Source: Gammaproteobacteria bacterium
GTDB lineage: Bacteria; Pseudomonadota; Gammaproteobacteria; Eutrophobiales; Eutrophobiaceae
Direction of reading: 5' to 3'
NCBI GenBank assembly: GCA_028819495.1
Contig: JAPPLI010000130.1
Coordinates: forward strand, 28,649 to 92,648
DNA: 64,000 nucleotides
The translations under genes and the position numbers were made by a program. Of the stretch, positions 4,633-61,890 are shown piece by piece. The notes below the pieces were generated by a model. It was not told the DNA's origin, ran no database searches, and was given only the letters and a program-made list of their open reading frames with translations. Positions within the stretch are counted from its first letter, which is position 1. Each line of letters starts with the position of its first letter.

Positions 4633-4674
4633 GGGGTCAGAGTAAGAAATTCGAAGAATTTTTACTCTGACCCC
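4633..4674. repeat. Type-1 palindromic repeat
   Basis: Identical 42-bp copy of 4021-4062. Marks the left edge of the AT-rich accessory block. Confidence 0.9.
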
Positions 4675-25845: not shown

Positions 25846-25850
25846 TAAAC

Positions 25851-28800
25851 ATGTTCAGGTTTGCCATTGAGAAACCGCTGATTATCGCTGTCGCGGTGCT
25901 GATCATCTGCCTGTTCGGCCTGCTGGCCATCTTCCGCGTGCCCATCCAGATGATTCCCGACCTCGACGTCAGGGTCGTCACGGTGATTACCCAGTGGCCC
26001 GGCGCCACTCCCCAGGACGTGGAAAAGGAGATCATCATAGAGCAGGAGGAATACCTGCGGCGCATCCCCGGCCTGGAACGCATGATCTCCCAGGCCCGTA
26101 CCGGGCGCGCAGAGATCGAGCTGGAATTTCCCTACGGCGTTGAAATCAACGAAGTCCTGATCCGGGTCAACAACGCCCTGACCCAGGTGCCCGGCTACCC
26201 GGAAAACGTCGATGAGCCGCGCCTGGTCACCAGCACCGTCTCCAATAATCCGTTCCTTTTTTTCCTGGCCCGGCCCCTGCCGGGCAACCCGCAGAACGTG
26301 AACATGGTGGAAATGCGCGACTTCCTGGAGGACAACGTGCGCGTGCAGATTGAACGGGTGCCGGGCGTGTCGGAGGTGCGTATATGGGGCGGCGCGGAGC
26401 GTCAGATCAAGGTTTACGTGGATCCGGTCAAGCTGGCCGAGAGGCAGATCACGCTGTCCGAGGTCCGCAACGCCATCCGCGCGCGTAACCGGGACGTTTC
26501 CGGGGGCGACCTGGACAGCGGCAAACGTCGCTACCTGTTGCGCACGGTGGGCCGTTTCTCCACCACGGAAGATATTGAAAACATGGTCATCGCCCATCGC
26601 GACGGCGTATTTATCCGCCTGCGCGACCTGGGTTATGCGGAGTTGTCCACCTTTGAAATCCAATCCTACTCCTACGCCAACGGAACACCCAACATCAGCC
26701 TGGGGGTGCGCCGGCAGATCGGTTCCAACGTGGTGGAAGTCAAGGAGGACGTGGTGAAAAAGGTGGAACAGCTCAACGACGGCCTGCTCAAGGAGCGCGG
26801 CCTGTACATGGTGCTGAATGCCGATGACGTGAAGTACGTCACCGATTCCGTGGTGAATGTGCGCAAGAACCTGGTTATCGGCGCCCTGCTGGCTACCATC
26901 GTCCTATTCCTGTTCCTGAGAACGCCTTCCGCCACCCTTATCGGCGCCATCGGCATACCCATCTGCACACTCGCCGCGTTTCTCGGCCTGCTGGTCAGCG
27001 GACGCACCATCAACGTGATCTCCCTGGCCGGCGTCGCTTTTGCCATCGGCATGACCCTGGATAACAGCATCGTGGTGCTGGAGAACATTTACCGGCACAT
27101 GGCTTCCGGCAAGCAGCGCCGGCGCGCCGCTATCGACGGGGTGACCGAGGTATGGCCGGCGCTGCTGGCATCCACACTGACCACGGTGCTGGTATTCCTC
27201 CCCATCATCTTCATCAAGCAGGAAGCCGGGCAGTTGTATTCCGATATCGCCGTTGCCATTTCCGCATCCATACTGATGTCGTTGCTGGTCGCGACCCTGG
27301 TGGTGCCGACCCTGTGCAGCCGTTTTCTCACGCCGAACAGGGTTGAAATGTCCGCCAGTTCCGGCCTGTACGCCGGGGGACAACGGTTCGGCGCGGCGCT
27401 GCTCCGGTTCGTCAACTGGTTGATGGAGACGGTGGCCCGGCGGCTGGCCCTGGTGGCCGTGGTCGCCTGCGTCACCCTGCTGATTTTTGCGTCCATCCCC
27501 AAGGCGGAATACCTGCCGGAAGGCGAGGAACCGAAGATGTTTGTCCAGATGTACGCGCCGCCCGGATACAACATCGATGAGATGCACGGCATCTTCAAGG
27601 ACCTGGAAGCGTACCTGCTGCCGTATGTCGGCCAGGACCCGGAACTGTACGCCAGGAGGGAATCCGGACTGCCCGGCCTGAAATACGTAATCGGGTATGC
27701 CAGTGCTTCCCGTAACATTGTGATCCCGGAGGTGACGGACATCGGACAGGCCAACGACCTGCTGGATCTCATCGTGGAGAAGATCAGGGAAATCCCGGGC
27801 GTACACGCGTTTGCCTCCCGCGGTTCCATTTTCTCCAGCAACTGGGGCGGTTCCAGGAGCATCAACCTGGAGTTGAGTGGCGCCGACCTGGTGCCCTTGT
27901 TCGACGCCGGACTCAAGGCCTTTGTCCAGGCGCAATCCGTGTTTGAGAACCCGCAGATCCGCCCGGAACCCTCCACCCTGGCCCTGGGCCAGCCCCTGGT
28001 GGAGGTGCGCCCCGACTGGGAGCGCGCCAGCGAACTGGGCCTGGACGTGGGCGACCTGGGTTACAGCATCTGGGCCTTCTCGGACGGGGCATTCGTTGAC
28101 GAGTTCTTCCTGGGCGACGAGAAAATTGACATCTTCCTGTATTCCACCCAAGGCACGATCCGGCAACCGGAGGATGTGGCCGACATCATGCTGTACTCCC
28201 CCACGGGCGGCATGGTGCCGCTCAGCGCGGTGGCGGCGGTGCGCCAGACCGTGAATACCGAGACCATCCGCCGGGTCGACAGCAGCAGGACCATCACCCT
28301 GGGCATCGTCCCGCCGCGGGACATCCCGCTGGAGCAGGGGGTGGACATGGTGCGGCGCGGCGTCATCGACGAGTTGCGCGCTAGCGGCGAGATCGGGGAC
28401 GACATCGCCATGCGCATCACCGGGGCCAGCGATCTGCTCAGCGCGACCCGCAACGCCCTGAAGGGGAACTTCATCGTGGCGGTATTCATCTCGTACCTGT
28501 TGCTGGTGGCCATCTTCTCCCACTGGGGTTATCCGCTGCTGGTGATGACCACCGTTCCCGTCGGCATCGGCGGAGGGTTGATCGGCCTGTGGCTGCTGAA
28601 CGCCATAGGCGGCAACCTGTCATTGCTGGGACTGTCGGATATCTACCAGCCCTTCGATGTGATCACCATGCTCGGTTTCCTGATCCTCATCGGCACCGTG
28701 GTGAACAACCCGATCCTGATCATCGATCGTACCATGCGCAACGTCAGGACCAGTGGCATGGCATCGATTGACGCGGTGATGGAAAGCGTGCGCGCCCGGC

Positions 28801-29036
28801 TCAGGCCCATCATGATATCCAGCATCACCACCATCTTCGGCCTCTCGCCCCTGGTGTTCAGCCCGGGAGCGGGCACGGAGTTGTATCGCGGCCTGGGGGC
28901 CATAGTGATGTTCGGCCTGCTGTTCTCGACGCTGATCACGCTGACCTTCATGCCGACCCTGCTGTCGCTGACCTTGCAGTTCAGGGAACGGCTGGGACCG
29001 TCCGCAGATAAATTATCCGCAGATTACGCAGATTAG
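25851..29036 (+). CDS. RND efflux permease (AcrB/HAE family)
   Basis: 1061 aa with a 12-TM, two-large-loop architecture; MFRFAIEKPL...VITQWPGATPQDVE...LAGVAFAIGMTLDNSIVVLENI. The last 11 residues (SADKLSADYAD) are encoded by a type-2 repeat. Confidence 0.9.
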   Translation: MFRFAIEKPLIIAVAVLIICLFGLLAIFRVPIQMIPDLDVRVVTVITQWPGATPQDVEKEIIIEQEEYLRRIPGLERMISQARTGRAEIELEFPYGVEINEVLIRVNNALTQVPGYPENVDEPRLVTSTVSNNPFLFFLARPLPGNPQNVNMVEMRDFLEDNVRVQIERVPGVSEVRIWGGAERQIKVYVDPVKLAERQITLSEVRNAIRARNRDVSGGDLDSGKRRYLLRTVGRFSTTEDIENMVIAHRDGVFIRLRDLGYAELSTFEIQSYSYANGTPNISLGVRRQIGSNVVEVKEDVVKKVEQLNDGLLKERGLYMVLNADDVKYVTDSVVNVRKNLVIGALLATIVLFLFLRTPSATLIGAIGIPICTLAAFLGLLVSGRTINVISLAGVAFAIGMTLDNSIVVLENIYRHMASGKQRRRAAIDGVTEVWPALLASTLTTVLVFLPIIFIKQEAGQLYSDIAVAISASILMSLLVATLVVPTLCSRFLTPNRVEMSASSGLYAGGQRFGAALLRFVNWLMETVARRLALVAVVACVTLLIFASIPKAEYLPEGEEPKMFVQMYAPPGYNIDEMHGIFKDLEAYLLPYVGQDPELYARRESGLPGLKYVIGYASASRNIVIPEVTDIGQANDLLDLIVEKIREIPGVHAFASRGSIFSSNWGGSRSINLELSGADLVPLFDAGLKAFVQAQSVFENPQIRPEPSTLALGQPLVEVRPDWERASELGLDVGDLGYSIWAFSDGAFVDEFFLGDEKIDIFLYSTQGTIRQPEDVADIMLYSPTGGMVPLSAVAAVRQTVNTETIRRVDSSRTITLGIVPPRDIPLEQGVDMVRRGVIDELRASGEIGDDIAMRITGASDLLSATRNALKGNFIVAVFISYLLLVAIFSHWGYPLLVMTTVPVGIGGGLIGLWLLNAIGGNLSLLGLSDIYQPFDVITMLGFLILIGTVVNNPILIIDRTMRNVRTSGMASIDAVMESVRARLRPIMISSITTIFGLSPLVFSPGAGTELYRGLGAIVMFGLLFSTLITLTFMPTLLSLTLQFRERLGPSADKLSADYAD

Positions 29037-29146
29037 CGCAGATGAGGAGATAGGTGGGGTCAGAGTAAAATCGCCGAGGACGTGGGCAACAGCAGAGTCG
29101 GTGGTGATTTTACTCTGACCCCGGAATTTTAATCTGCAGATAAATC
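29001..29146. repeat. Composite repeat: type-2 arm, nested type-1 palindrome (29056-29122), truncated type-2 arm
   Basis: tccgcagataaattatccgcagattacgcagattagcgcagatg, then ggggtcagagtaaaatc...gattttactctgacccc, then aatctgcagataaatc. Confidence 0.85.
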
Positions 29147-32031: not shown

Positions 32032-32056
32032 CCATGCTCCTGCAACCTTATCAAAC

Positions 32057-35000
32057 ATGTTCAGGTTTGCCATAGAGAAGCCGCTGATCGTCGCGGTGGC
32101 GGTGCTGATCATCTGCCTGTTCGGCATCCTTGCCGTTTTTCGCGTGCCCATACAGATGATCCCGGATCTCGACGTGCGGGTGGTGACCGTGATAACCAAG
32201 TGGCCCGGCGCCACGCCCCAGGACGTGGAAAAGGAGATCATCGTCGAACAGGAGGAATACCTGCGCCGGATTCCGGGTCAGGACCGCATGATCTCCCGGG
32301 CGGTGACCGGCCTGGGCGAGATCAAGCTGGAGTTCCCTTACGGCACGGACATCAACGAGGTCCTGATCCGGGTAAACAATGCCCTGACCCAGGTCCCCGG
32401 CTACCCGGAAAACGTCGATGAACCCCGTCTCGTCGCCAACTCCGCGGAGAACCCGTTCATGTTCTTCTCCACGCAGCCCCTGCCGGGCAATCCGCAGGGC
32501 ATCGACATGGTGGAAATGCGCGATTTCCTGGAAGATAACGTGCGCGTGCAGCTTGAGCGGGTCTGGGGCGTCTCGGAAGTCACCATGTACGGCGGGGCGG
32601 AGCGGCAGGTCAAGATATACGTGGACCCGGTAAAGCTGGTCGAACGCCGGATCACGCTGTCCGAGGTGCGCAACGCCATCCGCGCCCGCAACCGGGATGT
32701 GTCCGGCGGCGATCTTGATAGCGGCAAGCGCCGTTACCTGCTCAGGACCATTGGGCGCTTTGAGACCACCGCGGACATGGAAAACATGGTGGTCGCCCGC
32801 CGTGACGGCGCGTTCGTGCGTTTGCGCGACCTGGGCCATGTCGAACTGTCCACGTTCGAGATTGACACCTACTTCTACTCGCACGGGGTACAGACCGTGA
32901 GCCTTGGGGTAAGCCGGCAGATCGGCGCCAACGTGGTGGAAGTCAAGGACAGGGTCCTGGAAAAAGTCGAAGAACTGAATAACGGCCTGTTGCAGGAGCG
33001 CGGCATGCGCATGCAGTACAACTTCGATGACGTCCAGTACATCACCGACTCCGTGAGCAACGTGCGCAATAATCTGGTCCTCGGCGCCCTGCTGGCCACG
33101 CTGGTCCTGTACCTGTTCCTCAGGACGCCATCCGCCACCCTCATCGGCGCCCTGGGCATTCCCGTCTGCACCCTCGCGGCCTTCCTGGGCCTGCTCATCA
33201 GCGGGCGCACCATCAATGTGATCTCGCTGGCCGGGATCGCCTTTGCCATCGGCATGACGCTGGACAACAGCATCGTGGTGCTGGAAAACATCTACCGGCA
33301 CCGGACAGCCGGCAAGGACCGCCGGCGCGCCGCGCTGGACGGGGTTGCAGAGGTGTGGCCGGCGCTGCTGGCATCCACGCTGACGACGGTGTTCGTATTT
33401 ATCCCGATCATTTTCATCAGGCAGGAGGCCGGGCAGTTGTATTCCGATATAGCTGTCGCCATTTCCGCATCCATACTGATGTCACTGCTGGTTGCGACCC
33501 TGGTGGTGCCGACCCTGTGCAGCCGGTTTCTTGCGCTGAACAGGGCCGAACCCGCGGCCGTTGCCGGGTTGTACGTTGCGGGACAGCGGGTCGGCGGGAT
33601 GCTGATCCGGTTCGTACAGTGGTTGATGAAGGGAATGACGCGCCGGCTGGGCCTGGTAGTCCTGGTAGGCTGCATCACCGCGCTCATCTTTGCCGCCATC
33701 CCCAAGGCGGAATACCTGCCGGAGGGAGAGGAACAGAAGATATTCGTCCGCTTGTTTGCGCCGCCGGGCTACAACATCGATGAGATGCACGCGATCCACA
33801 AGAGTGTAGACGACTTCCTGGTGCCCCATATCGGCGAGGACCCGGACAAGTACGCCAGTGGGGAATCCGGCTTCCCCGGCCTGAATTATGTTATCGGCTA
33901 TGCAACCTCCTCGCGCAGCGTGCTCATGCCGGAGGCCACGTCCCCGGACCAGGTTGATGACATGCTCGACATCGTGATGGGGAAGATCCGGGAGATCCCG
34001 GGAATACATGCGTTTGCGTCCAGGGGCTCGCTGTTTTCCGGCAACATGGGCGGTTCGAGAAGCATCAACCTGGAGTTGAGCGGCGCCGACCTGGTGCCCC
34101 TGTTCGACGCCGGTCTCAAGGCCTTTGTCCAGGCGCGCTCGGTATTCGAGAACCCGCAGATCCGCGCCCAACCCCCCGGCTTGACCATAGGGCAACCGCT
34201 GGTGGAGATACTCCCCGACTGGGAACGGGCCGGTGAACTGGGCATTGACGCCGGCGACCTGGGCTACGCCATCTGGGCCTTCTCGGACGGCGCGTTCGTG
34301 GATGAGTTCTTCCTGGGTGACGAGAAGATCGACATGTTCCTGTACTCCACCCGGGGCACCATCTCGCAACCGGAGGACGTGGACGACATAATGCTGTACT
34401 CGCCGCGCGGCGGCGTGGTGCCGCTGAGCGCAGTGGCGGAGGTGCGGCAGACCGTGAATACCGAGACCATCCGCTGAGTGGACAGCGAGAGGACCATTAC
34501 CCTGGGCATCGTCCCGCCGCGGGACATACCGCTGGAGCAGGGTGTGGACATGGTCCGGCGCGGCATTATCGACGAACTGAGGGCGAGCGGTGAAATCGGG
34601 GACGGCATCAGCATGCGCATCACCGGGGCCAGCGACCAACTCGAAGATACCCGGGATGCCCTGAAAGGGAATTTCATCATCGCCGTGTTCATTTCCTACC
34701 TGTTGCTGGTGGCCATCTTCTCCCACTGGGGCTACCCGCTGCTGGTGATGACCACCGTTCCCGTCGGCATCGGCGGGGGTCTGTTCGGACTGTGGCTGCT
34801 GAACGCCGTAGGCGGCAACCTGTCACTGCTTGGACTCGATGACGTACAGCAGTCCTTCGACGTGATCACCATGCTGGGTTTTCTGATCCTCATCGGCACG
34901 GTGGTGAACAACCCGATCCTGATCATCGACCGCACCATGCGCAACATCAAGACCAAGGGTATGGCATCGGTCGATGCGGTTCTGGAGAGCACCCGTGCCC

Positions 35001-35239
35001 GGCTCAGGCCGATCATGATATCCAGCATCACGACCATCTTCGGCCTGTCGCCCCTGGTGTTCAATCCCGGCGCCGGCACCGAACTCTACCGCGGCCTGGG
35101 CGCCATCGTGATGTTCGGCCTGCTGTTCTCAACGCTGATCACCCTGACCTTCATGCCGACCCTGCTCTCGCTCACCCTCCAGGCCAGGGAACGCCTGGGA
35201 CTGTCCGCAGATAAATTATCCGCAGATTACGCAGATTAG
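32057..35239 (+). pseudogene. Second RND permease paralogue with an in-frame TGA (34475-34477); no cognate adaptor gene
   Basis: Same start context (aaacATGttcaggtttgcc) and, by eye, roughly four of five residues identical to 25851-29036. ETIR-stop-VDSERTITLG here versus ETIRRVDSSRTITLG in the intact copy. The ORF-track start at 31964 would overlap the ACAD gene and is rejected. Confidence 0.8.
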
Positions 35240-35385
35240 CGCAGATGAAGAGATGGGTGGGGTCAGAGTAAAATCACCCCGGTCCCACCAGTGGCCACGA
35301 TGGTAACGATTTTACTCTGACCCCGGAATTCATTCATAAATCAAAAAAATAATCTGCGTTCATCTGCGTCATCTGCGGATAAATC
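35204..35385. repeat. Composite repeat: type-2 arm, nested type-1 palindrome (35259-35324), type-2 arm
   Basis: Same left arm as 29001-29044; right arm aatctgcgttcatctgcgtcatctgcggataaatc abuts the permease stop. Confidence 0.85.
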
Positions 35386-36721
35386 ACTTGCCGCGGGTTT
35401 TTGTCAATTCCAGGATAAGGGTCATGAGGATGATGAGGAAACCGCCGGCGTTCATGCCGTTGCGCAGCAGGCCGCCGGCGAATTCGTCGAGGTAAGCCGG
35501 GAATATCAGGCCGTACTGGCAGCCGGTCCCGGCCAGGAACGCGACGCCGGTGATAAGCCCCTTGCCGGTGTCCATGCCGTCATCGATGATCATCTTCAAG
35601 CCTATCATGAACAGCAGCGCAAGCATGATGAACAGGTAGCCCGCGAACACGGAATCCGGTATGGCCAGGACCACGGCGACGAGCTTCGGCAGGAATGCCA
35701 GGATGATGAAGGCCGCCCCGGTGGCTACGCCGACGTTGCGGGCCGCCACCCTGCTGAGTTCGGTCATGGACACGCTGGTCGTTATGGCTGATCCCGGTAC
35801 CGTACCCATCAACCCGGACACCATGTTACCCACGCCGTCCACGTTCAGGGCGCCCTGTACCGCGCTGAAATCCACGGGCCGCTCATCCCGCCAGGATACG
35901 CGCTGGATGGCAATGGCGCTGCTCATGGTGCGGATGCCGGCAACCAGGGCCACCAGCCGGAACGAAGGGAGCAGCGTCCAGAAGGCCGGCCCGAAATCGA
36001 GATCATGGCCCGGCCAGCGGTTCTCGGGAACATCGAACCAGGCGGCGCCGGCAACGCGGCCGATGTCGTACAGGCCGAACGTTGCGGCGATTACCGAGCC
36101 GGTCACGACGCCGATCACCGCCCCCCACACGCGCATGCCTACAGGCGCCTTCAGGGCGAACGCGCAAATCACCAGCGCCGTGATGAGAAAACTCAGCGCA
36201 GAGCCGGGCGGGGCGCTGCCGTCAACCGCGCTGCCAAGCAGTTCGGAGACTACCGGCAGTATCGTGATGGGTATCAGCATGATGATCGTCCCCGAGACCG
36301 TGGGTGTCAGGATGCGCCGGAACAGCTGTAGCTTCTAGGATAACGCCGGTGGGACCAGGGACGCAATAACGACCAGGGTGGCCATCATGGCCGGGCCGCC
36401 CGCCGCGAGCGCCATGATGCACACGGGGATGAAGGCCGCCGAAGAGCACATCACGATGATGTGGCCGGCGCCGATACGTCCGAAACGGAGGGCCTGCAAT
36501 ATCGTGGTCATGCCGCAGATCATGACCGCGGTGAGCACGGCCCAGGACAGGTAGGCTTCGGTTTCGCCCGCGGCGCGCACGATGACCGTGGGGACAAGCA
36601 CCACCGCAGCGATATTGAGCCCGGCGAGCTGCAGGCCGAGGCTTATGACAAGCGCCAGGGGAGGATTTTCATCGGGCTGGTATTGCACGCCCGTCCCGTC
36701 TCCTGTCCGGTTGCCGGTCAT
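35384..36721 (-). pseudogene. NCS2 (xanthine/uracil permease family) transporter with an in-frame TAG (36335-36337)
   Basis: ORF-track fragments 36335-36721 and 35384-36280 are contiguous in one frame: ...SLVPPALS-stop-KLQLFRRILTPTVSGTIIMLIPITILP... A multi-TM Xan_ur_permease-like sequence. Confidence 0.75.
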
Positions 36722-36732
36722 TGCATATCCGG

Positions 36733-39700
36733 TTATTCGATCCAGTAACGCCGGCGCTGGAACGGATAGCCGGGCAACGGGATGCGGCGCCGGTTTTCTC
36801 CCGCAAACAGTTCGGTAAAGGAAACCATCTCGCCGGCTTCGTAGGCCTGCGCTGCCGCTTGCGCCGCCGCATTCCCGTCTCCCGCCGCTGCTTCGCCGCC
36901 GGACGGCCGGTACGCGCCTGATGGTTCAACCGGTGTCAGCGCGGTTGCGTCCGTTTGCGCAAGCGCCTCCAACCCTTCACGGAGCGACGCCGGGTCGTTG
37001 AATACTATGCCCTTGCGGTATGTAAAATGCGACCTCCCTACACCCGCGGTCCAGGCCATGTCGGCCAGCAACGTAGCGGCAGCGTCGCCGTCGGACGGGC
37101 TTTCTTCAATACGTTCGTCCAGCCATAACAGGTAGCGTTGCGCCAGTTCCCTGAGCGCCTCGCCGGTTTTGCCCGAGAGCGGCAGGAACCGGTCCTGTCC
37201 GTCCCGCGGGTTATCTTCTGGCGCAGGCGGGTCCGTATATCCCTCGATCACGACATGCGCGTTTGTGCCCGATATCCCGAATGAACTGACTGCCGCCCCG
37301 AGAGGTCGCTCGGGATGGCGCGGCCAGTCAACCATGTCCGAAACAACGCGTACCGGGAGGCGGTCCCATTCCAGGTTCGGGTTCGGGTCCCGGAAATGCA
37401 GTTGTTTGGGAATCACTCCGTACTTCATTGCCAGGACTACCTTGATGATACCGGCGACTCCGGCGGCCGTTTCCAGGTGGCCGATATTGGTTTTCACCGA
37501 ACCGATCAGCAGCGGGCTATCCTCCTGCCGCCCGTTCCCATAAGCCGATGCCGCCGCCTGCACCTCGATCGGGTCGCCAAGGGCCGACCCGGCGCCATGG
37601 GCTTCCAGGTAGTCCACTTGTGCCGGCTCAATGCCGGCCTGCGCCAGCGCCGTTTCGATGACCCGTTCCTGCCCCGGGCCGTTCGGCGCCGTCGGTCCGG
37701 CGCTCGGCCCGTTCTGGTTGACCGCCGCGCCGCGCACCACGGCCCGGATATGGTCGCCATCAGCTTGCGCCTCGGACAGGCGTTTCAGTACCAGCATTCC
37801 GCAACCCTCACCGCGCGCAAAGCCATCGGCGGAAGCATCGAAGGTCTTGCAGCGCTGTTCCTTCGACAGCATGCCCAGTTCCGCCATTTCGCGTGTTTTC
37901 CCGGGCGACAGTACCGTGTTCACCCCGCCGGCCAGCGCCAGGTTTACCTCGCCCTGGCGCAGCGCCGTCAGGGCATGGTGTACGGAGACCAGCGAAGATG
38001 CGCAATTGAGTTCCACGGGCACCGCCGGGCCGGTAAGACCCAGTTTGAACGATACCCCGCCGACGGCCATACTGTTGGCAGTGCCGACGTAGCTGATACT
38101 GCTTCCGGCGGCAAGCATCAGGTCCCGGTACTCGCTGGAGGCGACGCCGGCGAACACGCCGGTGTTGCTGCCTCTCAGGTCGTCCGGGTTAATCCCTGCA
38201 TCTTCCAGGGCATGCCAGCTCGTTTCCAGGAGCAGGCGGTGTTGCGGGTCCGTGGCGCGCGCGCTGATCGGCGATATCCCGAAGAAACGGGCGTCAAACA
38301 GGTCTATCCCCTCGATGAAACCAGCGCGCCGTAAGGCGCTGTCGCTTTGGGCAGGATCTCCGGTAACGCCTTCCCAGGAACCGGGATCCCGGCGCCCGTC
38401 CGTCACCGCGTCTACGCCGGCTTCGAGCAGGCGCCAGAAGGACTGAAGATCCGGCGCGCCCGGGAAACGGCACGCCATGCCGATGATCGCGATGCCGTCG
38501 TCCCCGCTGCCCGGTGAAGGGCCGGGCCCGGTCACGATCTGCGCCCCGGGTTGTGTTTCAGGTTGTGGCTCGGGTTGTGGCCAGGGTTGTGCCGGGGCGG
38601 CGGGCATGTCGATAGCCTCTCCCAGTTCTCCAACAAGATGCCCGGCGAGAGTGGAGATATCGGGGTAGTCGAACACAACGGTGTTGGATGCTGTGTATTC
38701 CCCGGAAAACGCCCGGTTCAGCCGGTTGCGCAATTCCACCGCCATCAGCGAGTCCATCCCCAGGTCAAAGAAACCCACTTTGGGTTCAGGCGCACTCTGC
38801 AGCCGCAGCACCGCCTGTACTTCCTGTTGCAGGAAGGACGCGAGCAGTTCCTCATGCATTGTTGCCGGCGCTTCCCGCAGGGAGGTAAGCAGATCGTCCG
38901 GCGAGGCTACGTTCTTGGCTATGTCGTCTGAGTCTGTGGATAACAGGTCTTCCAGCAGGGGCGGACGCTCTTCTACAGCCTCCTCGAATACCGACCAGCC
39001 CATCGACATCACCACGGCGGTCGTGGCGTCCTGGCGCACCAGCCGGTCAAGCGCCCTGATACCCTGCTGCGGGGTAAACCAGCGCCCGCCGAGCGCCGAG
39101 CGTTGCCGGTCAATCCGGTCCCGCTGCTCAGCCGCCTCACCGATATCCGACCAAGCCCCCCAGGCGATGGCCTGACCCGGCAAGCCCAGCGCGCGCCGGT
39201 GACCGGCGAGCTGGTCCAGGAAGGCATTGGCCGCGGCATGGTTGGCCTGTCCCGGGTTGCCCATCACGCCGACCCGGCTGGAGAACAGGATAAAGAAATC
39301 CAGGTCGCGATCGGCAGTCGCGCGATGCAGGTGCCAGCCCCCCAGTATTTTCGGCCACAATACTTCCTCAAACCTGTCCCAACTCTGGTTGGTCAGCGCG
39401 CCGTCCGACAGCACGCCCACGCTATGTATCACGCCTCCCAACGGCGGCAGTTCCCGGTTCACGCGCGCCAGCATACCGTCCACGGCAGCCATATCCGTCA
39501 TGTCCGCCAGTTCAACCTGTACCCTCACGCCCCGGTCCTTCAGCGCCTCGATTACCTCTTGCGCGGCGGCGTCCGGGTCCCGGCGCCCGTTCAGCACGAT
39601 GATGCCCGCGCCATGGTCGGCAAGCCAGCCGGCGACGGCGCATCCGATCCCGCCCAGGCCGCCGGTTACCAGGTAGGTCCGGTCCTGCCGCAGCCGGTCC

Positions 39701-42183: not shown

Positions 42184-43686
42184 CTAGGCCGAAAGCGCCA
42201 TCGGGGCCAGCACCGCGTGGGGGCCTATCTCCAGCACCAGGTCCACCCCGAGTTCGGCTAATGTACCGACCCCGCGGGCGAATGCCACCGGTTCCCGGGC
42301 ATGCCGCCTCCAGTATGTCCCGTCCAGTGCCTGGCCGGATTTAACCACCCGGCCCGTCAGGTTGCTGACCACGGCCAGGGAGGGAGGCCCGGTTTTCACG
42401 CCGTCCAGGGACGTTTCCAGTGCGTCCAGCGCCGGCTCGACCAGGGCGCTGTGGAATGTTTTTGCCGTGTTCAGCCTCCTGGCCCGGGTCCCCTGCGCTT
42501 CGAGGCGCTTCATGATGGTTTCAACCTCGTCGACCGGCCCGCTGATCACCTGGTGGGTTCCGTTGTCCGTCGAAATGTTCACCCCGATTCCGGTAGACAA
42601 TTTATTCGCTGCCCGGACTTCGGCTGCCACCTGCGGCGCCGGCGCAAAAACCGCGGACATGGCGCCCGGTTCGGTTGCGGACAGCAGGGCGCCGCGCGCG
42701 CAGGCAAAACGCATGCCGTCCTGCAGGCTGAATACTCCCGCCGTGTGCGCCGCCGCCAGTTCCCCGACACTGTGTCCCATCACCACCCCGGGCCGGATGC
42801 CCACACTGGACCAGAGCGCCGTCAGTGCGCATTCCAGCGCGAACAGCGCCGGTTGCTCCCAGGCCGTGTCGCCCAGTTTCCCTTCCGTCCCGGCGCGGGC
42901 GAACATGACGTCCAGCAGGGAGGTTCCCCGTTCATCCCGGAATACTGTCTCACAGTGATCCAGGACCGCCTTCGCCACCGGTTCGCTCTCGTACAGCGCC
43001 TGCCCCATGCCGGCCCACTGGCTTCCCTGGCCGGTGTAGACGAACGCGACCTTGTTCACCGGCCGGGACTTGGCCACCTCACCGGTTTCGGCCAGTTCTC
43101 TGAGCCGTTCCTGCAGGGATCCGGCATCGTGGAAAGCAATACCTGTGCGGTATTCGAAATGGCTGCGTCCCGCGCCCGCAGTCCACGCCATGTCCGCCAG
43201 CAAGGGTTCCGGTACGGCGCCGTCCCCCCCCATCTCTCCTGCCATCTCCCCGGCCGGTTCACCGAGCCATGACAGGTAGCGCCCGGCAAGTTCCCGGAGC
43301 GCGTACTCCGATTTGGCTGATAACGGAAGAAAACGGATCTTGCGCGGTCCCATCTCCTGCTCCGGTAACGGCAGTTGCGCTACGTCCGCGGGCAGGGAAA
43401 CCGCTGACATCTGCGCACAGCCCGCTGCCTGGTATTGCTTACCGGGCGCCGTGTCCGGAGAGACGTACTCCTCCAGCACGATATGGGCGTTGGTCCCGGA
43501 TATCCCGAAGGAGTTCACTCCCGCCAGACGCGGTCTTCCGTTCCGGCGCGGCCACTCCGTCAAGTCTGTTGTCACTTGTAACGGCAGGCGGTCCCAGTCG
43601 ATAGCCGGGTTGGGATCATGGAAATGCAGGTGTTTGGGAATCACACCGCGCCTGGTCGCCAGTACGGCCTTGATCACGCCGGCCAC
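42184..43686 (-). pseudogene. Type I PKS fragment 2: KS1 C-terminus-linker-AT
   Basis: AGVIKAVLA...FGISGTNAHIVLEE; AT from about 43053 (FVYTGQGSQWAGMG, GHSVGELAAAH, KTFHS). Ends at an in-frame TAG (42184-42186) at the AT/post-AT linker boundary. Confidence 0.85.
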
Positions 43687-44770
43687 TCCTGCAGCCGATT
43701 CCAGGTGACCGAACGTTGGTTTTCACGGAACCGGTCAGGAGCGGCTGGCCGGTTGCGCGTCCCTGGCAATAGACTTCGGCTACAGCATTGATCTCAATCG
43801 GGTCGCCCACGGTCGTTCCGGTCCCGTGTGCCTCCAGGTAATCCACGTCCGTGGCCGCGACTCCTGCCTGCGACAGGGCCTCTCCCATGACCTGCACCAG
43901 CGCCGGCGTGTTGGGAACCGTGAGTCCCACGCTGGCGCCGCCGTGGTTGACCGCCGAGCCCCGGATTACCCCCCAGATCCGGTCACCGGCCGCCTCCGCA
44001 TCACTAAGCCGCTTCATGACCACAACCCCGCAACCTTCTCCCCGTACGTAACCGTTCGCGGACGCATCGAAGGTCTTGCACTGTCCATCAGGCGACAACA
44101 TCATTGCATCCGCGCGCAGTTCGTAGATGCGGCTGTTCAGCAGGGCCTGCACGCCGCCGGCAAGCGCCAGGTCCGCCTTGCCCTGCTGCAGGTCCGCCAC
44201 GGCATCATGGATAGACACCAGGGATGATGCGCAGGCAGCGTCAACCGCCTTCACCGGGCCCATCAGACCCATTACAAAAGCAACCCTCCCTGCGGCGCCG
44301 TTCAGGTTGGTGCCGCTCAGGGCGTAGAGGCAGGAGGCTGCATCGGCAGGTTTGCCGGAGTCCAGGACCAGCATCCGGTACTCGTCATTGCTGATCCCAA
44401 CGTACACGCCGGTGCGGCTGCCTTCCAGGCTGTCCGGGTCTATCCCCGCATCCTCGAGAGCCTGCCAGCTTGTTTCCAGCATCATCCGTTGTTGCGGACC
44501 CAGCAATTGCGATTCAACCGGAGAAATCCGGAAGAACGTTTCATCGAACTGATCTATGTCGCTGACAAAAGCGCCAAATCGACAGCCTTCGTTCAGCTGC
44601 GCGGCATCAGGGAAGAGTTCCCCTATGCGCCCGACTCCCGATCCCGGAACACCCTCGGTCACGGCATTCTCTCCGGCTTCCAGCAAACGCCAGAAGGAGG
44701 GGATATCCGGCGCGCCGGGGAAGCGGCACGCCATGCCCACTATCGCGATCGGTCGTTCAGTTTCGTACAT
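43616..44770 (-). pseudogene. Type I PKS fragment 1: KS1 N-terminal part, ended by a +1 frameshift
   Basis: IAIVGMACRFPGAPD, AACASSLVSIHDA, YLEAHGTGTTVGDPIE. The coding strand reads aac gtt C ggt cac ctg gaa where GSVKTNVGHLE is expected, with an extra base near 43711. SD AAGGAAG lies upstream of the ATG at 44770. Confidence 0.85.
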
Positions 44771-46698: not shown

Positions 46699-46711
46699 CC
46701 GGGGCGTTAAC

Positions 46712-46755
46712 TGGCTGGGGGCAGAGGATTCGAACCTCTACTGGCGGAGTCAGAG
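46712..46755. repeat. 44-bp direct repeat of the tRNA-Gln 3' part (distal att site of the islet)
   Basis: tggctgggggcagaggattcgaacctctactggcggagtcagag is identical to 50563-50606 (anticodon loop to CCA of tRNA-Gln). Confidence 0.9.
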
Positions 46756-50443: not shown

Positions 50444-50562
50444 CATCAGTCTCCCCAATAACCACACAATCGACCCCATTGTATCCAGGATTTTGCCACG
50501 TGCCCGTTTCGTGCTATCTTCATGTCCACGGCCAGGAAACGAAACATTTTGAAACTGTGAAT

Positions 50563-50636
50563 TGGCTGGGGGCAGAGGATTCGAACCTCTACTGGCGGAG
50601 TCAGAGTCCGCTGTCCTGCCGTTAGACGAGCCCCCA
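50563..50636 (-). tRNA. tRNA-Gln (anticodon CUG)
   Basis: Folded by hand. Acceptor UGGGGGC/GCCCCCA with U1-A72 and discriminator G73 (glutamine identity features); D stem GUCU/GGAC; anticodon stem GCGGA/UCCGC with loop CUCUGAC; T arm AGAGG-UUCGAAU-CCUCU; encoded CCA. Confidence 0.9.
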
Positions 50637-50700
50637 TCTGCACGAGGCTTCCTATTATAACAAGAGAAAGGGGACAGATTTAAGTCTGTCCCTTTCTACC

Positions 50701-50805
50701 CGTCATACCAGCCAGGGAATGGCCGGTATCCAGGAACAGGGATGTGTAATGTGTCGCCGGAGGCGACTCTCTTCTTACTGGATTCCGGCATTCGCCGGAA
50801 TGACG
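50701..50805. repeat. Type-3 repeat (~100 bp; cgtcat...atccag / ctggat...atgacg arms around a gtgtcgcc..ggcgac hairpin)
   Basis: cgtcataccagccagggaatggccggtatccag...gtgtcgccggaggcgac...ctggattccggcattcgccggaatgacg. Related copies at 56892-56986 and 59228-59323. Confidence 0.8.
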
Positions 50806-50824: not shown

Positions 50825-51502
50825 ATGACTGAAGGAAAAAAAATAGCCATTCTCGGCGGTACCGGCAACCTGGGATACGGCCTGGCCTGGCGCTGGGCGC
50901 GGGCCGGGCACGAGGTCATTATCGGTTCAAGGGTTGCGGAGAAGGCGCAGAATGCGGCCTCCGAACTCAACAAGAAGCCCGGCGCCGGTTCCATTACGGG
51001 GACTGATAATCTCAGCGCGACGCGACAGGCGGAAGTCGTGACGCTGACCGTCCCTTTTGCCGCCCATGCAGCCACCCTGGAGAGCATCCTGCCGGGCCTG
51101 AACGGGCAGGTCCTGATAGACACCACGGTGCCCCTCATCCCGCCGAAGGTGGCAGTGGTCCAGTTGCCGGAAGCCGGGAGTGCCGCCGTCATCACGCGCG
51201 AGACAGTGGGTGACCGGGCGAGAGTCACAGCGGCGTACCACAACGTGGCCGCCAACCTGCTGGAACAGGACGTGGAGATAGATTGCGACATCCTGGTGAC
51301 CGGCGACGACCCGGAAACCCGCAGGGAAGTGATGCAACTGGTGGAAGACAGCGGTTGCAGGGCCATCAATGCCGGGAAGCTGGCCAACGCCGCGGCTGCC
51401 GAAGCCCTGACCAGCCTGCTGATCCATATCAACCGGGCTTACAAGACCCCCCATTCCGGCATCCGCATCACCGGCATCGATGAAATTTCGGGGTCAGAGT
51501 AA
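50825..51502 (+). CDS. npdG: NADPH-dependent F420 reductase family protein
   Basis: 225 aa. Rossmann motif IAILGGTGNLGYGLAWRWARAGHEVIIGSR is typical of NpdG/Fno. Its last codons GSE-stop are supplied by a type-1 repeat. Confidence 0.7.
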   Translation: MTEGKKIAILGGTGNLGYGLAWRWARAGHEVIIGSRVAEKAQNAASELNKKPGAGSITGTDNLSATRQAEVVTLTVPFAAHAATLESILPGLNGQVLIDTTVPLIPPKVAVVQLPEAGSAAVITRETVGDRARVTAAYHNVAANLLEQDVEIDCDILVTGDDPETRREVMQLVEDSGCRAINAGKLANAAAAEALTSLLIHINRAYKTPHSGIRITGIDEISGSE

Positions 51503-51532
51503 AAATTCTGACGAATTTCTTACTCTGACCCC
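51490..51532. repeat. Type-1 palindromic repeat
   Basis: ggggtcagagtaaaaattctgacgaatttcttactctgacccc, the exact reverse complement of the copy at 58273-58315. Confidence 0.9.
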
Positions 51533-56891: not shown

Positions 56892-56986
56892 CGTCATGCC
56901 GGGCTTGACCCGGCATCCAGTGAAATATTGTGTCGCCTGAAAGGCGACCCTTTACTCACTGGATTCCCGCCTGCGCGGGAATGACG
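56892..56986. repeat. Type-3 repeat
   Basis: cgtcatgccgggcttgacccggcatccagtg...gtgtcgcctgaaaggcgac...actggattcccgcctgcgcgggaatgacg. Supplies the last ~12 codons (SSFPRRRESSE) and the stop of the DUF2784 gene. Confidence 0.85.
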
Positions 56987-57377
56987 ATGGCGGCGCCAGG
57001 TACCAGGCCAGGACCACCAGCGCGCCGAATACGGTATAACATAGCGTAAATACCCAGGCTTCCGCCTGGTAGAAGATCAACTTGTGCAGCCAGTGCTGGA
57101 TGAACGAACCGGCGTAGGTTGCTTCGCCGGCTTTGTCCCGCAGGCTATTTTCCCAGATCGTCAACGGGCAGATTATATTCAACCAGGCCTGTATGACCAC
57201 GACGCCTATTGCGCCCAGATGAATGAAACGGAACCAGGGATTCCTGATCCAGCGCCACCCCCTGACCAGGCCGGCGATAATGAATATCAGCCCGAAAACC
57301 ACAAAGGCGATAAACAGGGCGTGAATAATCAGCAACCCGTCGGCGGCAAGCAGTAACCAGGTCGGGGACAGCGTCAC
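56952..57377 (-). CDS. DUF2784-like small membrane protein
   Basis: 141 aa with 4 TM segments and the CPLTIWENSLR motif. GTG start 1 nt after the gloB stop. Confidence 0.55.
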   Translation of the reverse strand: MTLSPTWLLLAADGLLIIHALFIAFVVFGLIFIIAGLVRGWRWIRNPWFRFIHLGAIGVVVIQAWLNIICPLTIWENSLRDKAGEATYAGSFIQHWLHKLIFYQAEAWVFTLCYTVFGALVVLAWYLAPPSSFPRRRESSE

Positions 57378-58272: not shown

Positions 58273-58315
58273 GGGGTCAGAGTAAGAAATTCGTCAGAAT
58301 TTTTACTCTGACCCC
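58273..58315. repeat. Type-1 palindromic repeat
   Basis: ggggtcagagtaagaaattcgtcagaatttttactctgacccc. Confidence 0.9.
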
Positions 58316-58325
58316 GAAAATCTGA

Positions 58326-59579
58326 TCAGGATTCAGGCAGGAACAATGTTGCCGGGAATTCCAGGTATTGCTTCAGCGCCCGGATGGCGCAGGCAGCGTC
58401 ATGGCCGTCAACGACGCGGTGGTCGAATGAGGATGAGATGTTCATCATCAGACGGGGGGTAACCCCGTTATTTTGGAATACCGGGCGTTGTTGCGTCCTG
58501 TTTATGCCGATGATGGCGACTTCAGGGTGATTGATGATCGGAGTGGAAACAATGCCGCCCAGTGCGCCCAGACTGGTGATAGTGATGGTGGAACCGGTGA
58601 GTTCTTCCCTTCGAGCCTTGCCGGTTCTCGTTTTTTCCGCCACCTGGCGCAGTTCCCGGGCGCATTGCCACAGGTCCAGGGTTTCAACGTGCCGGATCAC
58701 TGGCACCATCAGGCCGTCACCGGTCTGCACCGCAATACCAATGTGGATCGAATCGAATTGCGTGATGACCTGGCGCTCATCGTCAAAGTGTGCATTACAC
58801 TGGGGAAATTCACTTGCTACCTTCACCAGGGCCTGCATGATGAAGGGCAGGTAGGTGAGTTCGGGCCGGCTTTCCTGCCGCTTCCCATTTAGCTGCCGGC
58901 GCAGTTGTTCCAGATCGGTGACATCGACTTCCTCGACATAACTGAAGTGCGGGATACGGCTGGCGCTCAGGCTCATCTGTTCGGCTATCTTGCGGCGCAG
59001 GCCCACCAGCTTGATTTCATGGACGCCGGTCGCATCCGCTTCGGTTTTAGCCTCCGCCTGTTTCCCGGCCTGAGCAAGGCAGGCTTCGATATCGGCGCGG
59101 GTAATGCGTCCGTTCGTCCCGGTGCCGCTTATTCGGTCGAGATTGATGCCGCGTTCCCTGGCGAGACGGCGAATAGCGGGGGAGGTCTGCGGCCTGACGG
59201 GCGCAGGCTCGCCGCTCTCCTCTACCTCGTCATGCCGGACTTGTTCCGGCATCCAGTGGGATACTGTGTCGCCCTCCGGGTGACCCGTTATTTCACTGGA
59301 TTCCCGCCTGCGCGGGAATGACGAATGGGGAGCGTCGCCACCTGTGGCAAATACTGCCAACTCGGCGCCCACCGCGATGACATCGCTGGCCTCGCCGGCG
59401 ATAGAGACCAGGGTGCCGGTGACCGGCGCGGTGATCTCTATGGTGGCCTTGTCCGTCATCACATCCACCAGGGGTTGATCAGTTTCGATGGTATCACCGA
59501 CCCCGGCGCGCCAGGCGACGATCTCGGACTCGACGGTGCCTTCGCCCAGGTCCGGCAACTTGAACGAATACTCAGCCAC
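58326..59579 (-). CDS. bkdB: Branched-chain 2-oxoacid dehydrogenase E2 (dihydrolipoyl transacylase) carrying an in-frame repeat insertion
   Basis: GTG start at 59577-59579, 2 nt after the E1-beta stop. Lipoyl domain (DVMTDKATIEI), PSBD (SPAIRRLARERGINLDRISGTG) and catalytic DHRVVDG. A 96-nt type-3 repeat lies in the inter-domain linker. Confidence 0.85.
   Translation of the reverse strand: MAEYSFKLPDLGEGTVESEIVAWRAGVGDTIETDQPLVDVMTDKATIEITAPVTGTLVSIAGEASDVIAVGAELAVFATGGDAPHSSFPRRRESSEITGHPEGDTVSHWMPEQVRHDEVEESGEPAPVRPQTSPAIRRLARERGINLDRISGTGTNGRITRADIEACLAQAGKQAEAKTEADATGVHEIKLVGLRRKIAEQMSLSASRIPHFSYVEEVDVTDLEQLRRQLNGKRQESRPELTYLPFIMQALVKVASEFPQCNAHFDDERQVITQFDSIHIGIAVQTGDGLMVPVIRHVETLDLWQCARELRQVAEKTRTGKARREELTGSTITITSLGALGGIVSTPIINHPEVAIIGINRTQQRPVFQNNGVTPRLMMNISSSFDHRVVDGHDAACAIRALKQYLEFPATLFLPES
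59228..59323. repeat. Type-3 repeat inserted in frame inside bkdB
   Basis: 96 nt = 32 codons, read as ...HSSFPRRRESSEITGHPEGDTVSHWMPEQVRHDE... between the lipoyl domain and the PSBD. Confidence 0.85.
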
Positions 59580-59581
59580 AG

Positions 59582-60667
59582 TCAGGCTTCCAGGGTCCGT
59601 TGCAGCGCGGTGGCGACCCGCGCCTGGCCCGGGAAATACGCCCATTCCTGCGCGTGCGGGTAGGGCGTGTCCCAACCCGTTACCCGTTCGATGGGGGCTT
59701 CAAGGTTCCAGAAACAATGCTCCTGGACCTGTGCAGAGAGTTCCGCTCCATAGCCGCAGAAGCGCGTGGCTTCGTGTACGATCACGCAGCGCCCGGTCCG
59801 GCACACGGATTCGCAGAGGGTATCGATATCCAGTGGCATCAGCGTGCGCACGTCGATGACCTCGGCGTCGATGCCCGTTTGACCGGTCGCCGCCAACGCT
59901 ACATGCACCATGGTGCCGTAGGCGAGTACGGTTACGTCGTTGCCGGCGCGGACCGTTTCGGCCTTGCCCAGCGGCACCCGGTAGTGGCCAGCGGGAACCT
60001 GCCCTTTTTCGTGTCCGTCCCAACTCACGGCCGGCCTGCCGGGGTTGCCGTCAAACGGACCGTTGTAGAGCCGTTTCGGTTCGAAGAAGATGACCGGGTC
60101 ATCATCCTCGATGGCGCTGATCAGCAGGCCCTTGGCATCGTAGGGATTCGACGGCATTACCGTCTTCAGTCCGCAGACGTGAGCAAACAGGGCCTCCGGT
60201 GTCTGTGAGTGGGTCTGCCCGCCGCGGATGCCGCCGCCGCAGGGGGTGCGTATCGTCACCGGCGACCAGAACTGGCCGGCGCTACGATAACGCAGGCGGG
60301 CCAGTTCGCTGGCAATCTGGTCGAAGGCCGGGTAAATATAGTCGGCAAACTGGATCTCAACCACCGGTCGCAGGCCGTTGACGCCCATGCCGATGGCCGT
60401 CGCCACGATACCGCCCTCGGCAATCGGCGTATCGAACACGCGGTCCTCGCCGTGCTTCTGCTGCAGGCCTTCGGTGCAGCGGAACACGCCGCCGAAGTAG
60501 CCGACGTCTTCGCCGAAAATGACCACGTTGGGGTCCCGTTCCAGCATCACATCCATGGCGGAGTTCAGGGCCTGGATCATGGACATTGCATGCACTTCCC
60601 CGGGCGCCGCCTCTGTCGCCGCAGGTTGCGGCGCCGGGCCGTCCTCGATATCTAATACTGCATTCAT
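59582..60667 (-). CDS. bkdA2: Branched-chain 2-oxoacid dehydrogenase E1 beta subunit
   Basis: 361 aa with a transketolase-like pyrimidine-binding fold (IFGEDVGYFGGVFRCT). ATGA overlap with the E1-alpha stop. Confidence 0.9.
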   Translation of the reverse strand: MNAVLDIEDGPAPQPAATEAAPGEVHAMSMIQALNSAMDVMLERDPNVVIFGEDVGYFGGVFRCTEGLQQKHGEDRVFDTPIAEGGIVATAIGMGVNGLRPVVEIQFADYIYPAFDQIASELARLRYRSAGQFWSPVTIRTPCGGGIRGGQTHSQTPEALFAHVCGLKTVMPSNPYDAKGLLISAIEDDDPVIFFEPKRLYNGPFDGNPGRPAVSWDGHEKGQVPAGHYRVPLGKAETVRAGNDVTVLAYGTMVHVALAATGQTGIDAEVIDVRTLMPLDIDTLCESVCRTGRCVIVHEATRFCGYGAELSAQVQEHCFWNLEAPIERVTGWDTPYPHAQEWAYFPGQARVATALQRTLEA

Positions 60668-61890
60668 TTTATTGCCTCAAGCTGCCGGCGCTGTTCCAGG
60701 AGATGCGGCGGCATCTCCTTGTAAACGTGTTCGAACATGGCCGAGTCGGGCGGGCGCGGGCCTTCATTCAACGTTCCCAGCGAGAGCGCCTCTTCCCAGG
60801 TTCTGCTCACCGTGTCCTCCAGTTCCGATTGCATCTGTTCGTGTTCCGTCTCGGACCATTCACCCCGGGCGATTAAATGTTGTTTCAGGCGCGCTATGGG
60901 ATCGCCCAGGGGCCAGTGTTCCCATTCATCGACCGGCCGGTACCTGCCGGGGTCGTCGCTGGTGGAATGGGCCGCGGCGCGGTAGGTATACAATTCGATG
61001 AGGGTGGGGCCGCCCCCGGCCCGCGCCCGGCCCGCGGCCCAGCGCGTGGCGGCGAATACAGCGAGAAAATCATTACCGTCCACGCGCAGGCCGGGAATAC
61101 CGTAACCGATGGCGCGCGCGGCAAACGGGTTCTGCTCACCCCCGGCGACGTTCTGAGAGGTGGATATGGCCCATTGGTTGTTGACCACGTTCAGTATGAC
61201 AGGCGCGCGGTACACCGCGCTGAAGGTAAGGGCATAGTGGAAATCCGCCTCCGCGCTGGTGCCTTCACCCACCCAGGCCGCTGCAATATCCCCGGTCTTC
61301 CTGTACCCGGCGGCCATGGCCCAGCCGACAGCCTGGGAAAACTGGGTGCCCAGGTTGCCGGAAATGCTGAAAAATTTATGTACATCCGAACTGTACATAA
61401 CCGGCATTTGCCGGCCCTGCAACCTGTCTCCGGCGTTGGACAGGCACTGGCACATCATGTCCAGCAGGGGATAACCGCGCGTGACCAGCAGGGCCTGCTG
61501 CCGGTACGTGGGAAACAGCATATCGCCGTCATCCAGCGCCATGCACTGGGCAACCGATACGGCTTCTTCGCCGGTGCACTTAAGGTAGAACGACATCTTT
61601 CCCTGGCGCTGCATCCTGAGCATACGGTCATCGTACAGGCGTGTCAGCAGCATGTGCCGCAGCCCGTCATGGAGCACGCCGGCGGGCAGTTCCGGGTTCC
61701 AGGGACCAGCGGCCCGGTGTTCCTCATCGAGGACCCGTATCATGCCGAAGGCCATGTCGCGTAACTCATCGGCAGGCGCCAGTTCGTCGGGACGGTCCAG
61801 CGCGCCGGGTTCGGGCAGGGCAATGGCGCTGAAATCCGGTTCTTCGCCCGGACGGTACGGCGCAGTCGGAATATGTAATCTGGCAGCCAT
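60664..61890 (-). CDS. bkdA1: Branched-chain 2-oxoacid dehydrogenase E1 alpha subunit (TPP-dependent)
   Basis: 408 aa with the TPP motif GEGTSAEADFHYALTFSAVYRAPVILNVVNNQWAIS. Confidence 0.9.
   Translation of the reverse strand: MAARLHIPTAPYRPGEEPDFSAIALPEPGALDRPDELAPADELRDMAFGMIRVLDEEHRAAGPWNPELPAGVLHDGLRHMLLTRLYDDRMLRMQRQGKMSFYLKCTGEEAVSVAQCMALDDGDMLFPTYRQQALLVTRGYPLLDMMCQCLSNAGDRLQGRQMPVMYSSDVHKFFSISGNLGTQFSQAVGWAMAAGYRKTGDIAAAWVGEGTSAEADFHYALTFSAVYRAPVILNVVNNQWAISTSQNVAGGEQNPFAARAIGYGIPGLRVDGNDFLAVFAATRWAAGRARAGGGPTLIELYTYRAAAHSTSDDPGRYRPVDEWEHWPLGDPIARLKQHLIARGEWSETEHEQMQSELEDTVSRTWEEALSLGTLNEGPRPPDSAMFEHVYKEMPPHLLEQRRQLEAIK

Follow-up and report, generated by a model that had tools for sequence, protein, structure and literature searches.

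The branched-chain 2-oxoacid dehydrogenase-like E2 gene (bkdB-like, dihydrolipoyl transacylase) in the window, by which we mean the whole stretch of 64,000 nucleotides that was analyzed, contains a 96-nt palindromic repeat within linker 1 between its lipoyl and E3-binding domains (Table 1). The reading that we favor, with a probability of roughly 0.8, is that the repeat is a tolerated dimer of CGTC-type repetitive extragenic palindromes (REPs), that the encoded peptide is a passenger, and that the DNA palindrome is the conserved entity. In-frame REPs inside E2 genes have already been catalogued, and the present case is a clear and largely ordinary example of them. What is added here is modest: an exact Neisseria Transformation Sequence (NTS) in a sponge symbiont, an insert whose evolution resembles that of DNA rather than protein, strain-level polymorphism of the linker, and an IS110-family insertion in the same hairpin. 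An earlier note, made from the letters of the sequence alone, had described the palindrome with its arms and core, two further copies of it, one of which forms the end of a DUF2784 gene, and its extent of exactly 32 codons in an E2 gene with intact frame and downstream catalytic motif. These descriptions were borne out by the sequence itself, by folding and shuffling, by repeat finding and alignment, and by codon positions and Pfam hits and domain limits.

The 96 nt extend from the second position of codon 86 to the first position of codon 118 of the E2 gene and thus equal 32 codons; in an alignment with the full-length E2p of G. stearothermophilus the insert falls opposite an inter-domain linker. 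Two arms (CGTCAT..ATCCAG and CTGGAT..ATGACG) flank a GTCGCC..GGTGAC core. Behind its tag, the first arm is composed of ATTCCCGC, GCAG, GCGGGAAT, and CCAG, and the second arm of CGTC, ATGCCGGA, CTTGT, TCCGGCAT, and CCAG. Just two of the six reading frames of this copy are fully open. The 46-mer of the left arm occurs a single time in the window, and 100 shuffles produced no match to it. A 111-nt stretch covering the repeat has a predicted RNA fold of -52.7 kcal/mol (z = -5.96) and a DNA fold with z = -5.29, and in either case 0 of 200 dinucleotide shuffles folded as well. The single-strand fold consists of a CGTCAT/ATGACG closing stem and three hairpins, and a consensus fold computed for 13 copies, taken from the window and from relatives, is the identical four-way junction, with compensatory changes in four pairs. 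A search against Rfam, using gathering thresholds for the whole window and permissive settings for positions 59150-59400, retrieved nothing relevant.

The arm at 59296-59323 reads CGTCATTCCCGCGCAGGCGGGAATCCAG on the coding strand and matches exactly the 28-nt consensus of the NTS (CGTCATTCCCGCGMAVGCGGGAATCYRG), the Neisseria sequence that contains the dRS3 repeat (PMC11893778). A second exact NTS match is located at 56959-56986, and positions 50778-50805 fit the degenerate Ssn-related motif (SRM), for which the window has four matches compared to 0.42 expected from shuffles; the second arm of each dimer lies outside the SRM search pattern. Both arms open with CGTC on their own strand, as an unpaired tag beside the hairpin, and both have the stem, loop, and tail of CGTC REPs. 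In this classification CGTC REPs have the CGTC tag, a stem of 8-9 bp starting with AT, and a short CCA tail, with a loop of 4 nt in CGTC-1 (8-bp stem) and of 5 nt in CGTC-2 to -4; dRS3 and the Rickettsia element RPE-6 were placed in CGTC-1, and RPE-4 is CGTC-4 (Di Nocera, De Gregorio & Rocco 2013, PMC3733652). The second arm has the CGTC-2 format with its 5-nt loop. Because both arms share the CGTC format around a structured spacer, the whole element is, judged by its sequence, a CGTC-REP heterodimer of a kind already known and widespread, and REP dimers of dissimilar partners with a structured spacer have already been described (PMC3733652). The reading frames of dRS3/NTS/CGTC-1 repeats yield VIPAQAGIQ, SFPRRRESS, and IPACAGMT, in agreement with the earlier note, which had likened the SFPRRRESS and IPAQAGIQ peptides to repeat-derived open reading frames (ORFs) elsewhere. 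A full-text literature search for the peptides encoded by this repeat found no paper. In genome annotation these three strings should be taken as flags of repeat-derived sequence and not as protein motifs.

The known CGTC REPs resemble the window repeat in the tag, the 8-bp stem starting with AT, the 4- or 5-nt loop, the CCA tail, dimers of dissimilar partners, the structured spacer, the occurrence of in-frame intragenic dimers, and probably also a preference for the 3' ends of genes. More than half of the intragenic REPs are dimers or grouped repeats that encode 20-30 residues, and the supplementary table of the same study lists, for S. alaskensis, a CGTC-1 REP at residues 180-187 of the pyruvate dehydrogenase E2 (Sala_1235), for O. 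terrae, GTAG-17 dimers within the two E2 genes Oter_4191 and Oter_4192, and, for S. wittichii, a CGTC-1 dimer peptide (VIPAKAGIS...IPAFAGMT) within the hypothetical protein Swit_4867 (PMC3733652). Those REPs were found mostly in alphaproteobacteria, whereas the host here is an uncultured gammaproteobacterial sponge symbiont, in which the repeat is a 96-nt four-way-junction composite within an E2 of the branched-chain 2-oxoacid dehydrogenase type and represents one allele of a polymorphic cassette. With the Neisseria NTS/dRS3 repeats it shares the exact 28-nt consensus arm, the fit of this arm to the SRM pattern, and the symbiotic host, SRM-rich genomes being enriched among plant and animal symbionts (PMC11893778). 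In Neisseria, dRS3 is the target of a phage recombinase (PMC11893778), and in a relative of the window an IS110-family element lies in the same hairpin. The repeats nevertheless differ in that those of Neisseria form intergenic clusters while the present copy is coding, in that the second arm does not follow the SRM pattern, and in that no ssnA gene was located here by a crude motif search. The likeness is one of motif sequence, and cleavage or a role in transformation is at most conjectural here. Rickettsia palindromic elements (RPE) are comparable as palindromic repeats situated in frame in an ORF and read as an extra peptide by a host protein that stays intact; the kinship runs via the classes in the literature (RPE-6 as CGTC-1 and RPE-4 as CGTC-4) and not via direct sequence comparison, RPE-1 is a longer and different element, and the hosts are obligate intracellular alphaproteobacteria. 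Finally, REP/BIME-RAYT systems (BIME, bacterial interspersed mosaic element) and bacterial MITEs (miniature transposable elements with inverted repeats) likewise are short, structured, multi-copy repeats, with outward-tagged dimers and with terminal inversions like the CGTCAT / ATGACG ends of the present repeat, but the tag here is CGTC and not GTAG, and neither a parent element nor a RAYT or other transposase was identified for the repeat. A trace resembling a target-site duplication is limited to loci L090 and L091, where a direct repeat of 8-9 nt, (G)ACGGGGAA, flanks the element and overlaps the tag.

To place the insert among its orthologues, the 120 best E2 homologues were gathered, linker states were compared across 100 sequences, and the insert was counted in 93 (the window and 92 homologue clusters). 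The homologues have lengths of 300-535 amino acids; apart from two truncated sequences, they vary mainly by the linkers, by an insert close to where the catalytic domain begins, and by the C-terminus. Relatives with the same gene order that lack the insert have a linker 1 of 7 residues (P0034/L001), 16 residues (TDAEGGDTSQPAPAAR; P0050/L004 and approximately 25 others), or 19 residues (TEKGTELNSVPGESAPAPA; P0024/L003 and others). Based on this orthologue alignment, the suggestion of the earlier note that the 32 residues are an insertion is confirmed. Since linkers that carry no repeat module are short (7-16 residues), the repeat modules supply most of the linker length. The insert is kept in about 30 of the 93 E2 sequences and is always in frame.

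Besides the 16-residue base form and the NTS dimer, linker 1 occurs as a 25-nt perfect hairpin read as GTELNSVP, as decayed remnants, as a dimer bearing the longer arm of the copy at 50701 (HVPVPGYRPIPGRYD), as a lone NTS arm fused to GTELNSVP (P0007), as a tandem expansion in which SSFPGDT is repeated (P0036), and with an extra hairpin nested within the arm loop (P0003/L087). The repeat is found upstream of the conserved GGDTSQPAPA segment in L090 and L091 but downstream of the corresponding GGD in the lineage of the window, which points to at least two insertion positions or to rearrangements. A single ancient and vertically inherited insertion was considered and rejected, because the linker states are interleaved on a neighbor-joining tree of 357 gap-free columns and because the linker differs completely between proteins that are otherwise nearly the same: P0012, with the dimer, and P0044, with GTELNSVP, are 98.6% identical outside the linker and have wholly different linkers. 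On the DNA level, these two have near-identical flanks around a sharp replacement of 132 nt by 57 nt, which is bounded by the points where the lipoyl domain ends and the E3-binding domain begins. It is more likely that such inserts were gained and lost repeatedly, or that alleles were exchanged by homologous recombination. Linker 1 is a strain-level polymorphic cassette of repeat modules, and the insert is one allele of this cassette that is spread across the clade.

Further modules of this kind were observed elsewhere in the E2 genes. The 25-nt perfect hairpin (GGGGACAGAATTAAATTCTGTCCCC), read in frame as (K)GTELNSVP, is found in linker 1 or 2 of many orthologues (linker 2 in L001, L088, and L089; linker 1 in L003, L092, and L102). 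It is missing from the window E2, and a related copy at 50671-50692 directly adjoins the repeat at 50701. A multi-hairpin segment read as NLPGADLDAQRAPAGGAPGKAH is located in frame close to where the catalytic domain begins in P0003, P0030, P0036, P0038, P0049, and others (L087:10770-10850; L091:10640-10760) and is duplicated in L091. NTS-type arms also overlap the 3' end of the E2 gene in L091 (11486-11513) and L007 (11193-11220), and in L091 such an arm lengthens the C-terminus (...LFLPPPRVRHSRESRNPVQ*).

One could go further and regard linker 1, and in the relatives also linker 2, the C-terminus, and the N-terminal portion of the catalytic domain, as a strain-variable cassette that is driven by recombination and composed of several genomic hairpin-repeat families, in which the coding NTS hairpin would stay active as a DNA element, that is, as a site of recombination or cleavage or as a landing pad for IS110-type elements. 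We regard this extension as tentative and on balance doubtful. If true, a core metabolic enzyme would have a coding sequence that doubles as a "docking" locus for repeats, and co-existing symbiont strains would hold alternative linker alleles.

The mode of evolution of the insert was assessed by comparing substitutions between two sub-groups of five insert-bearing orthologues (the window, L005, L087, L088, and L089). In the folded domains, third-position identity was 68-73%, with synonymous divergence (dS) of 0.47-0.58, non-synonymous divergence (dN) of 0.05-0.08, and omega (their ratio, dN to dS) of approximately 0.1, which indicates that the E2 gene is under purifying selection. The insert, by comparison, had third-position matches at 28-30 of 32 codons (Fisher p 0.001-0.025 vs. 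the domains), dS of 0.07-0.18, dN of 0.09-0.12, and omega of 0.6-1.5, and its three codon positions were about equally conserved. Because omega is close to 1 and all codon positions behave alike, the insert would seem to evolve as DNA, with fewer changes than at neutral sites in the rest of the gene, and its peptide to be without detectable protein-level selection, a result that is no more than suggestive, given 32 codons and pairs that are not independent. The same figures make it improbable that the repeat-encoded peptide has been co-opted and selected as protein, for instance as a longer swinging arm or as an interaction motif. The consistently in-frame position of the insert, its retention in so many E2 sequences, and the large contribution of repeat modules to the otherwise short linker would fit such a function, but omega is far above that of the domains, near-identical strains bear a 19-residue alternative that has no sequence in common with the insert, and tolerance extends to truncated, duplicated, and nested variants.

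According to the favored interpretation, one strand of the outward-tagged CGTC-REP dimer with its hairpin spacer would fold as a four-way junction, and a genomic copy of this repeat would have become part of E2 linker 1 in a gammaproteobacterial sponge symbiont. Since its length is divisible by three and the frame in use is free of stops, translation would continue across it and add 32 polar residues to the swinging-arm linker, and the gene would tolerate it because this linker needs length and flexibility but no particular sequence. The peptide would then be a passenger and the DNA palindrome the part that is conserved, probably as a functional or recognized DNA or RNA element, by homogenization against the many other copies, or by recombinational spread of the allele, and the linker as a whole would be an exchangeable cassette of repeat modules.

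Several observations weigh against this interpretation or limit it. The substitution test covers few codons in five orthologues that are not independent of each other, and the low dS of the insert fits structural constraint, gene conversion, or recent allele spread equally well. A clean empty site with a target duplication was sought in the lineage of the window and not found, the linker being too rearranged. Searches of RNA runs returned only runs of unknown type or none, and neither transcript nor peptide evidence for the insert was obtained; one predicted tryptic peptide of the insert region is ESSEITGHPEGDTVSHWMPEQVR. An AlphaFold2 model from a 51-sequence alignment had a mean pLDDT of 50, with even the lipoyl domain too unconfident, so that the model was not used and disorder of the linker could not be read from it. 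A crude six-frame search for GIY..YIG motifs in the window and eight close loci (~170 kb) detected no Ssn-type GIY-YIG gene.

The last result also bears on the possibility that the intragenic repeat is kept for an action in cis on DNA or RNA that goes beyond mere tolerance, which overlaps with the favored interpretation and does not exclude it. The repeat could serve as a recombination or cleavage site of an Ssn-type single-strand nuclease, as a place where IS110-type recombinases land, or as an mRNA structure that tunes the stability or translation of the E1 alpha-E1 beta-E2 transcript. Conservation at all three codon positions, the very stable predicted fold, the recombination-style organization of the linker cassette, and the IS110-family element within the NTS hairpin of the sister copy in L088 are consistent with such a role. 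So is the exact NTS arm, as in Neisseria the small GIY-YIG nuclease SsnA cuts the NTS as single-stranded DNA on one strand only (PMC11893778); in the present E2 gene, it is the coding strand that carries the NTS. A role in cis is nonetheless rather unlikely as the reason for retention. Many close strains lack the repeat in E2, which means that it is not required for the operon, recent spread or gene conversion would explain the low dS just as well, and no homologue of ssnA (GIY-YIG, cd10448), a gene that is often flanked by the motifs (PMC11893778), turned up in the crude motif search.

An assembly artefact or a pseudogene can be regarded as hardly credible. Short-read contigs do break at the repeat (those of run X1 end at 59254 and resume at 59301), but the in-frame insert recurs in independent European Nucleotide Archive (ENA) and NCBI assemblies, including contigs of 3.7-4.9 Mb, the ORF with its three domains and catalytic motif is intact, and omega of the domains is approximately 0.1.

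Repeat finding and alignment support three copies of the dimer in the window, and more dimers are present in the flanks of the relatives' loci. The frame that is used in E2 contains, in the sister copy, the stop codon that ends the DUF2784 gene. This gene (56952-57377) ends inside the repeat in the same arrangement in L089, L090, L091, and L092, in which the site of the sister copy is kept; it is also kept in L088, where an insertion sequence (IS) splits the NTS arm. The third copy is kept in L005 and L087. The L088 insertion (L088:12750-14170, orthologous to window positions 56892-56986) is an IS110-family element (DEDD_Tnp_IS110 and Transposase_20) inside the NTS hairpin: the arm, intact in L089 as ...CGTCATTCCCGCGCAGGCGGGAATCCAG, reads ...GTCATTCCC / IS / GCGCAGGCGGGAATCCAG in L088, and there is no target duplication around the element. 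In the sponge metagenome, contig depth was ~65x for E2, ~36,900x for the NTS arm, ~2,400x for the spacer, and ~1,100x for the left arm, all in a mixed metagenome; as these depths are far above that of E2, the community contains hundreds of copies of the NTS hairpin and tens of copies of the composite element. A metagenome scan for the composite element retrieved 8 loci only, which are mostly intergenic and have variant tags. The dRS3-type hairpin was absent from 79 distant E2 loci (1.4 Mb) collected by a profile search of genome contigs with the E2 alignment, which yielded mainly alpha- and betaproteobacterial E2s, with L007 as one moderately close locus.

The window stretch was recovered in sponge metagenome runs, its source clade consists of uncultured sponge Gammaproteobacteria, and the E2 protein closest to that of the window is from GCA_028820555.1. 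The E2 has the features of branched-chain 2-oxoacid dehydrogenases, namely the DKA lysine, the subunit-binding domain, the DHRxxDG motif, and E1 alpha and E1 beta as operon partners; DHRVVDG and the three Pfam domains are intact and the reading frame is undisturbed. The JGI names of the homologues fit this assignment, and specificity for branched-chain substrates is probable from these sequence features. The gene order common to the relatives is Lrp/AsnC regulator, E1 alpha, E1 beta, E2, metallo-beta-lactamase-fold hydrolase, DUF2784, and a large TPP/POR enzyme. The locus is a well-documented natural case of an NTS/dRS3-type repeat within the coding frame of an enzyme of an essential pathway, from a repeat class for which a link with a single-strand DNA nuclease family has recently been established. 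The close strains with and without the insert allow one to ask what repeats in coding DNA do, and the same strain pairs bear on the freedom of sequence in the swinging-arm linkers of 2-oxoacid dehydrogenases.

Table 1. Coordinates of the repeat, its further copies, and the E2 operon genes in the window.
Feature	Position	Strand	Remarks
Complete repeat, CGTC-REP heterodimer (assigned from sequence), tags outward	59228..59323	-	96 nt; E2 residues 86-117 = SSFPRRRESSEITGHPEGDTVSHWMPEQVRHD
NTS/dRS3/CGTC-1 arm	59296..59323	- (coding strand)	CGTC tag, 8-bp stem ATTCCCGC, 4-nt loop, CCAG tail
Structured spacer	59257..59295	.	Central hairpin GTCGCC CTCC GGGTGAC, lengthened by CCAGTG../..CACTGG stem
Second CGTC-tagged arm	59228..59256	+	CGTC, 8-bp stem ATGCCGGA, 5-nt loop CTTGT, CCAG tail
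Sister copy, 95 nt	56892..56986	-	DUF2784 gene ends in it; supplies the final 11 residues (SSFPRRRESSE) and the stop codon
Third copy, 105 nt, longer left-arm variant	50701..50805	-	Intergenic, between tRNA-Gln and F420-dependent oxidoreductase gene
E2 (dihydrolipoyl transacylase, bkdB-like)	58326..59579	-	417 aa; GTG start 59579, stop 58326
E2 lipoyl domain	59352-59564	-	Pfam, residues 6-76
E2 E3-binding domain	59085-59186	-	Pfam, residues 132-165
E2 catalytic domain (2-oxoacid dehydrogenase)	58338-59021	-	Pfam, residues 187-414
E1 beta subunit	59582..60667	-	Stop codon 2 nt upstream of E2 start codon
E1 alpha subunit	60664..61890	-	2-oxoisovalerate dehydrogenase E1-alpha N-terminal domain (Pfam OxoDH_E1alpha_N)

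Other repeats were also observed in the window. A hairpin family of the form GGGGTCAGAGTAA...TTACTCTGACCCC is located at 4021-4062, 4633-4674, 23564, 29056-29122, 35259-35324, 45732, 51486-51532, and 58273-58319; one copy lies just past the E2 stop codon and is terminator-like, and complementarity is 100% over 47 nt between the copy at 51486-51532 and that at 58273-58319. A 50-nt direct repeat (46706-46755 and 50557-50606, 96% identical) covers the 3' part of tRNA-Gln (50563-50636) and encloses ~3.85 kb in which a small upstream ORF accompanies a PIN-domain toxin-like ORF, a segment that looks like an element integrated at this tRNA gene. Two pairs of diverged direct repeats with 72-83% identity, each spaced by ~6.2 kb (25844-26546 vs. 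32050-32749, and 37242-38493 vs. 43470-44749), suggest duplicated gene clusters. The duplicated region is flanked by clustered TTATCCGCAGAT / ACGCAGAT motifs, some direct and some inverted (25695-25852, 28997-29045, and 35207-35398), with complementarity of 98% over up to 49 nt between 25699 and 35339.

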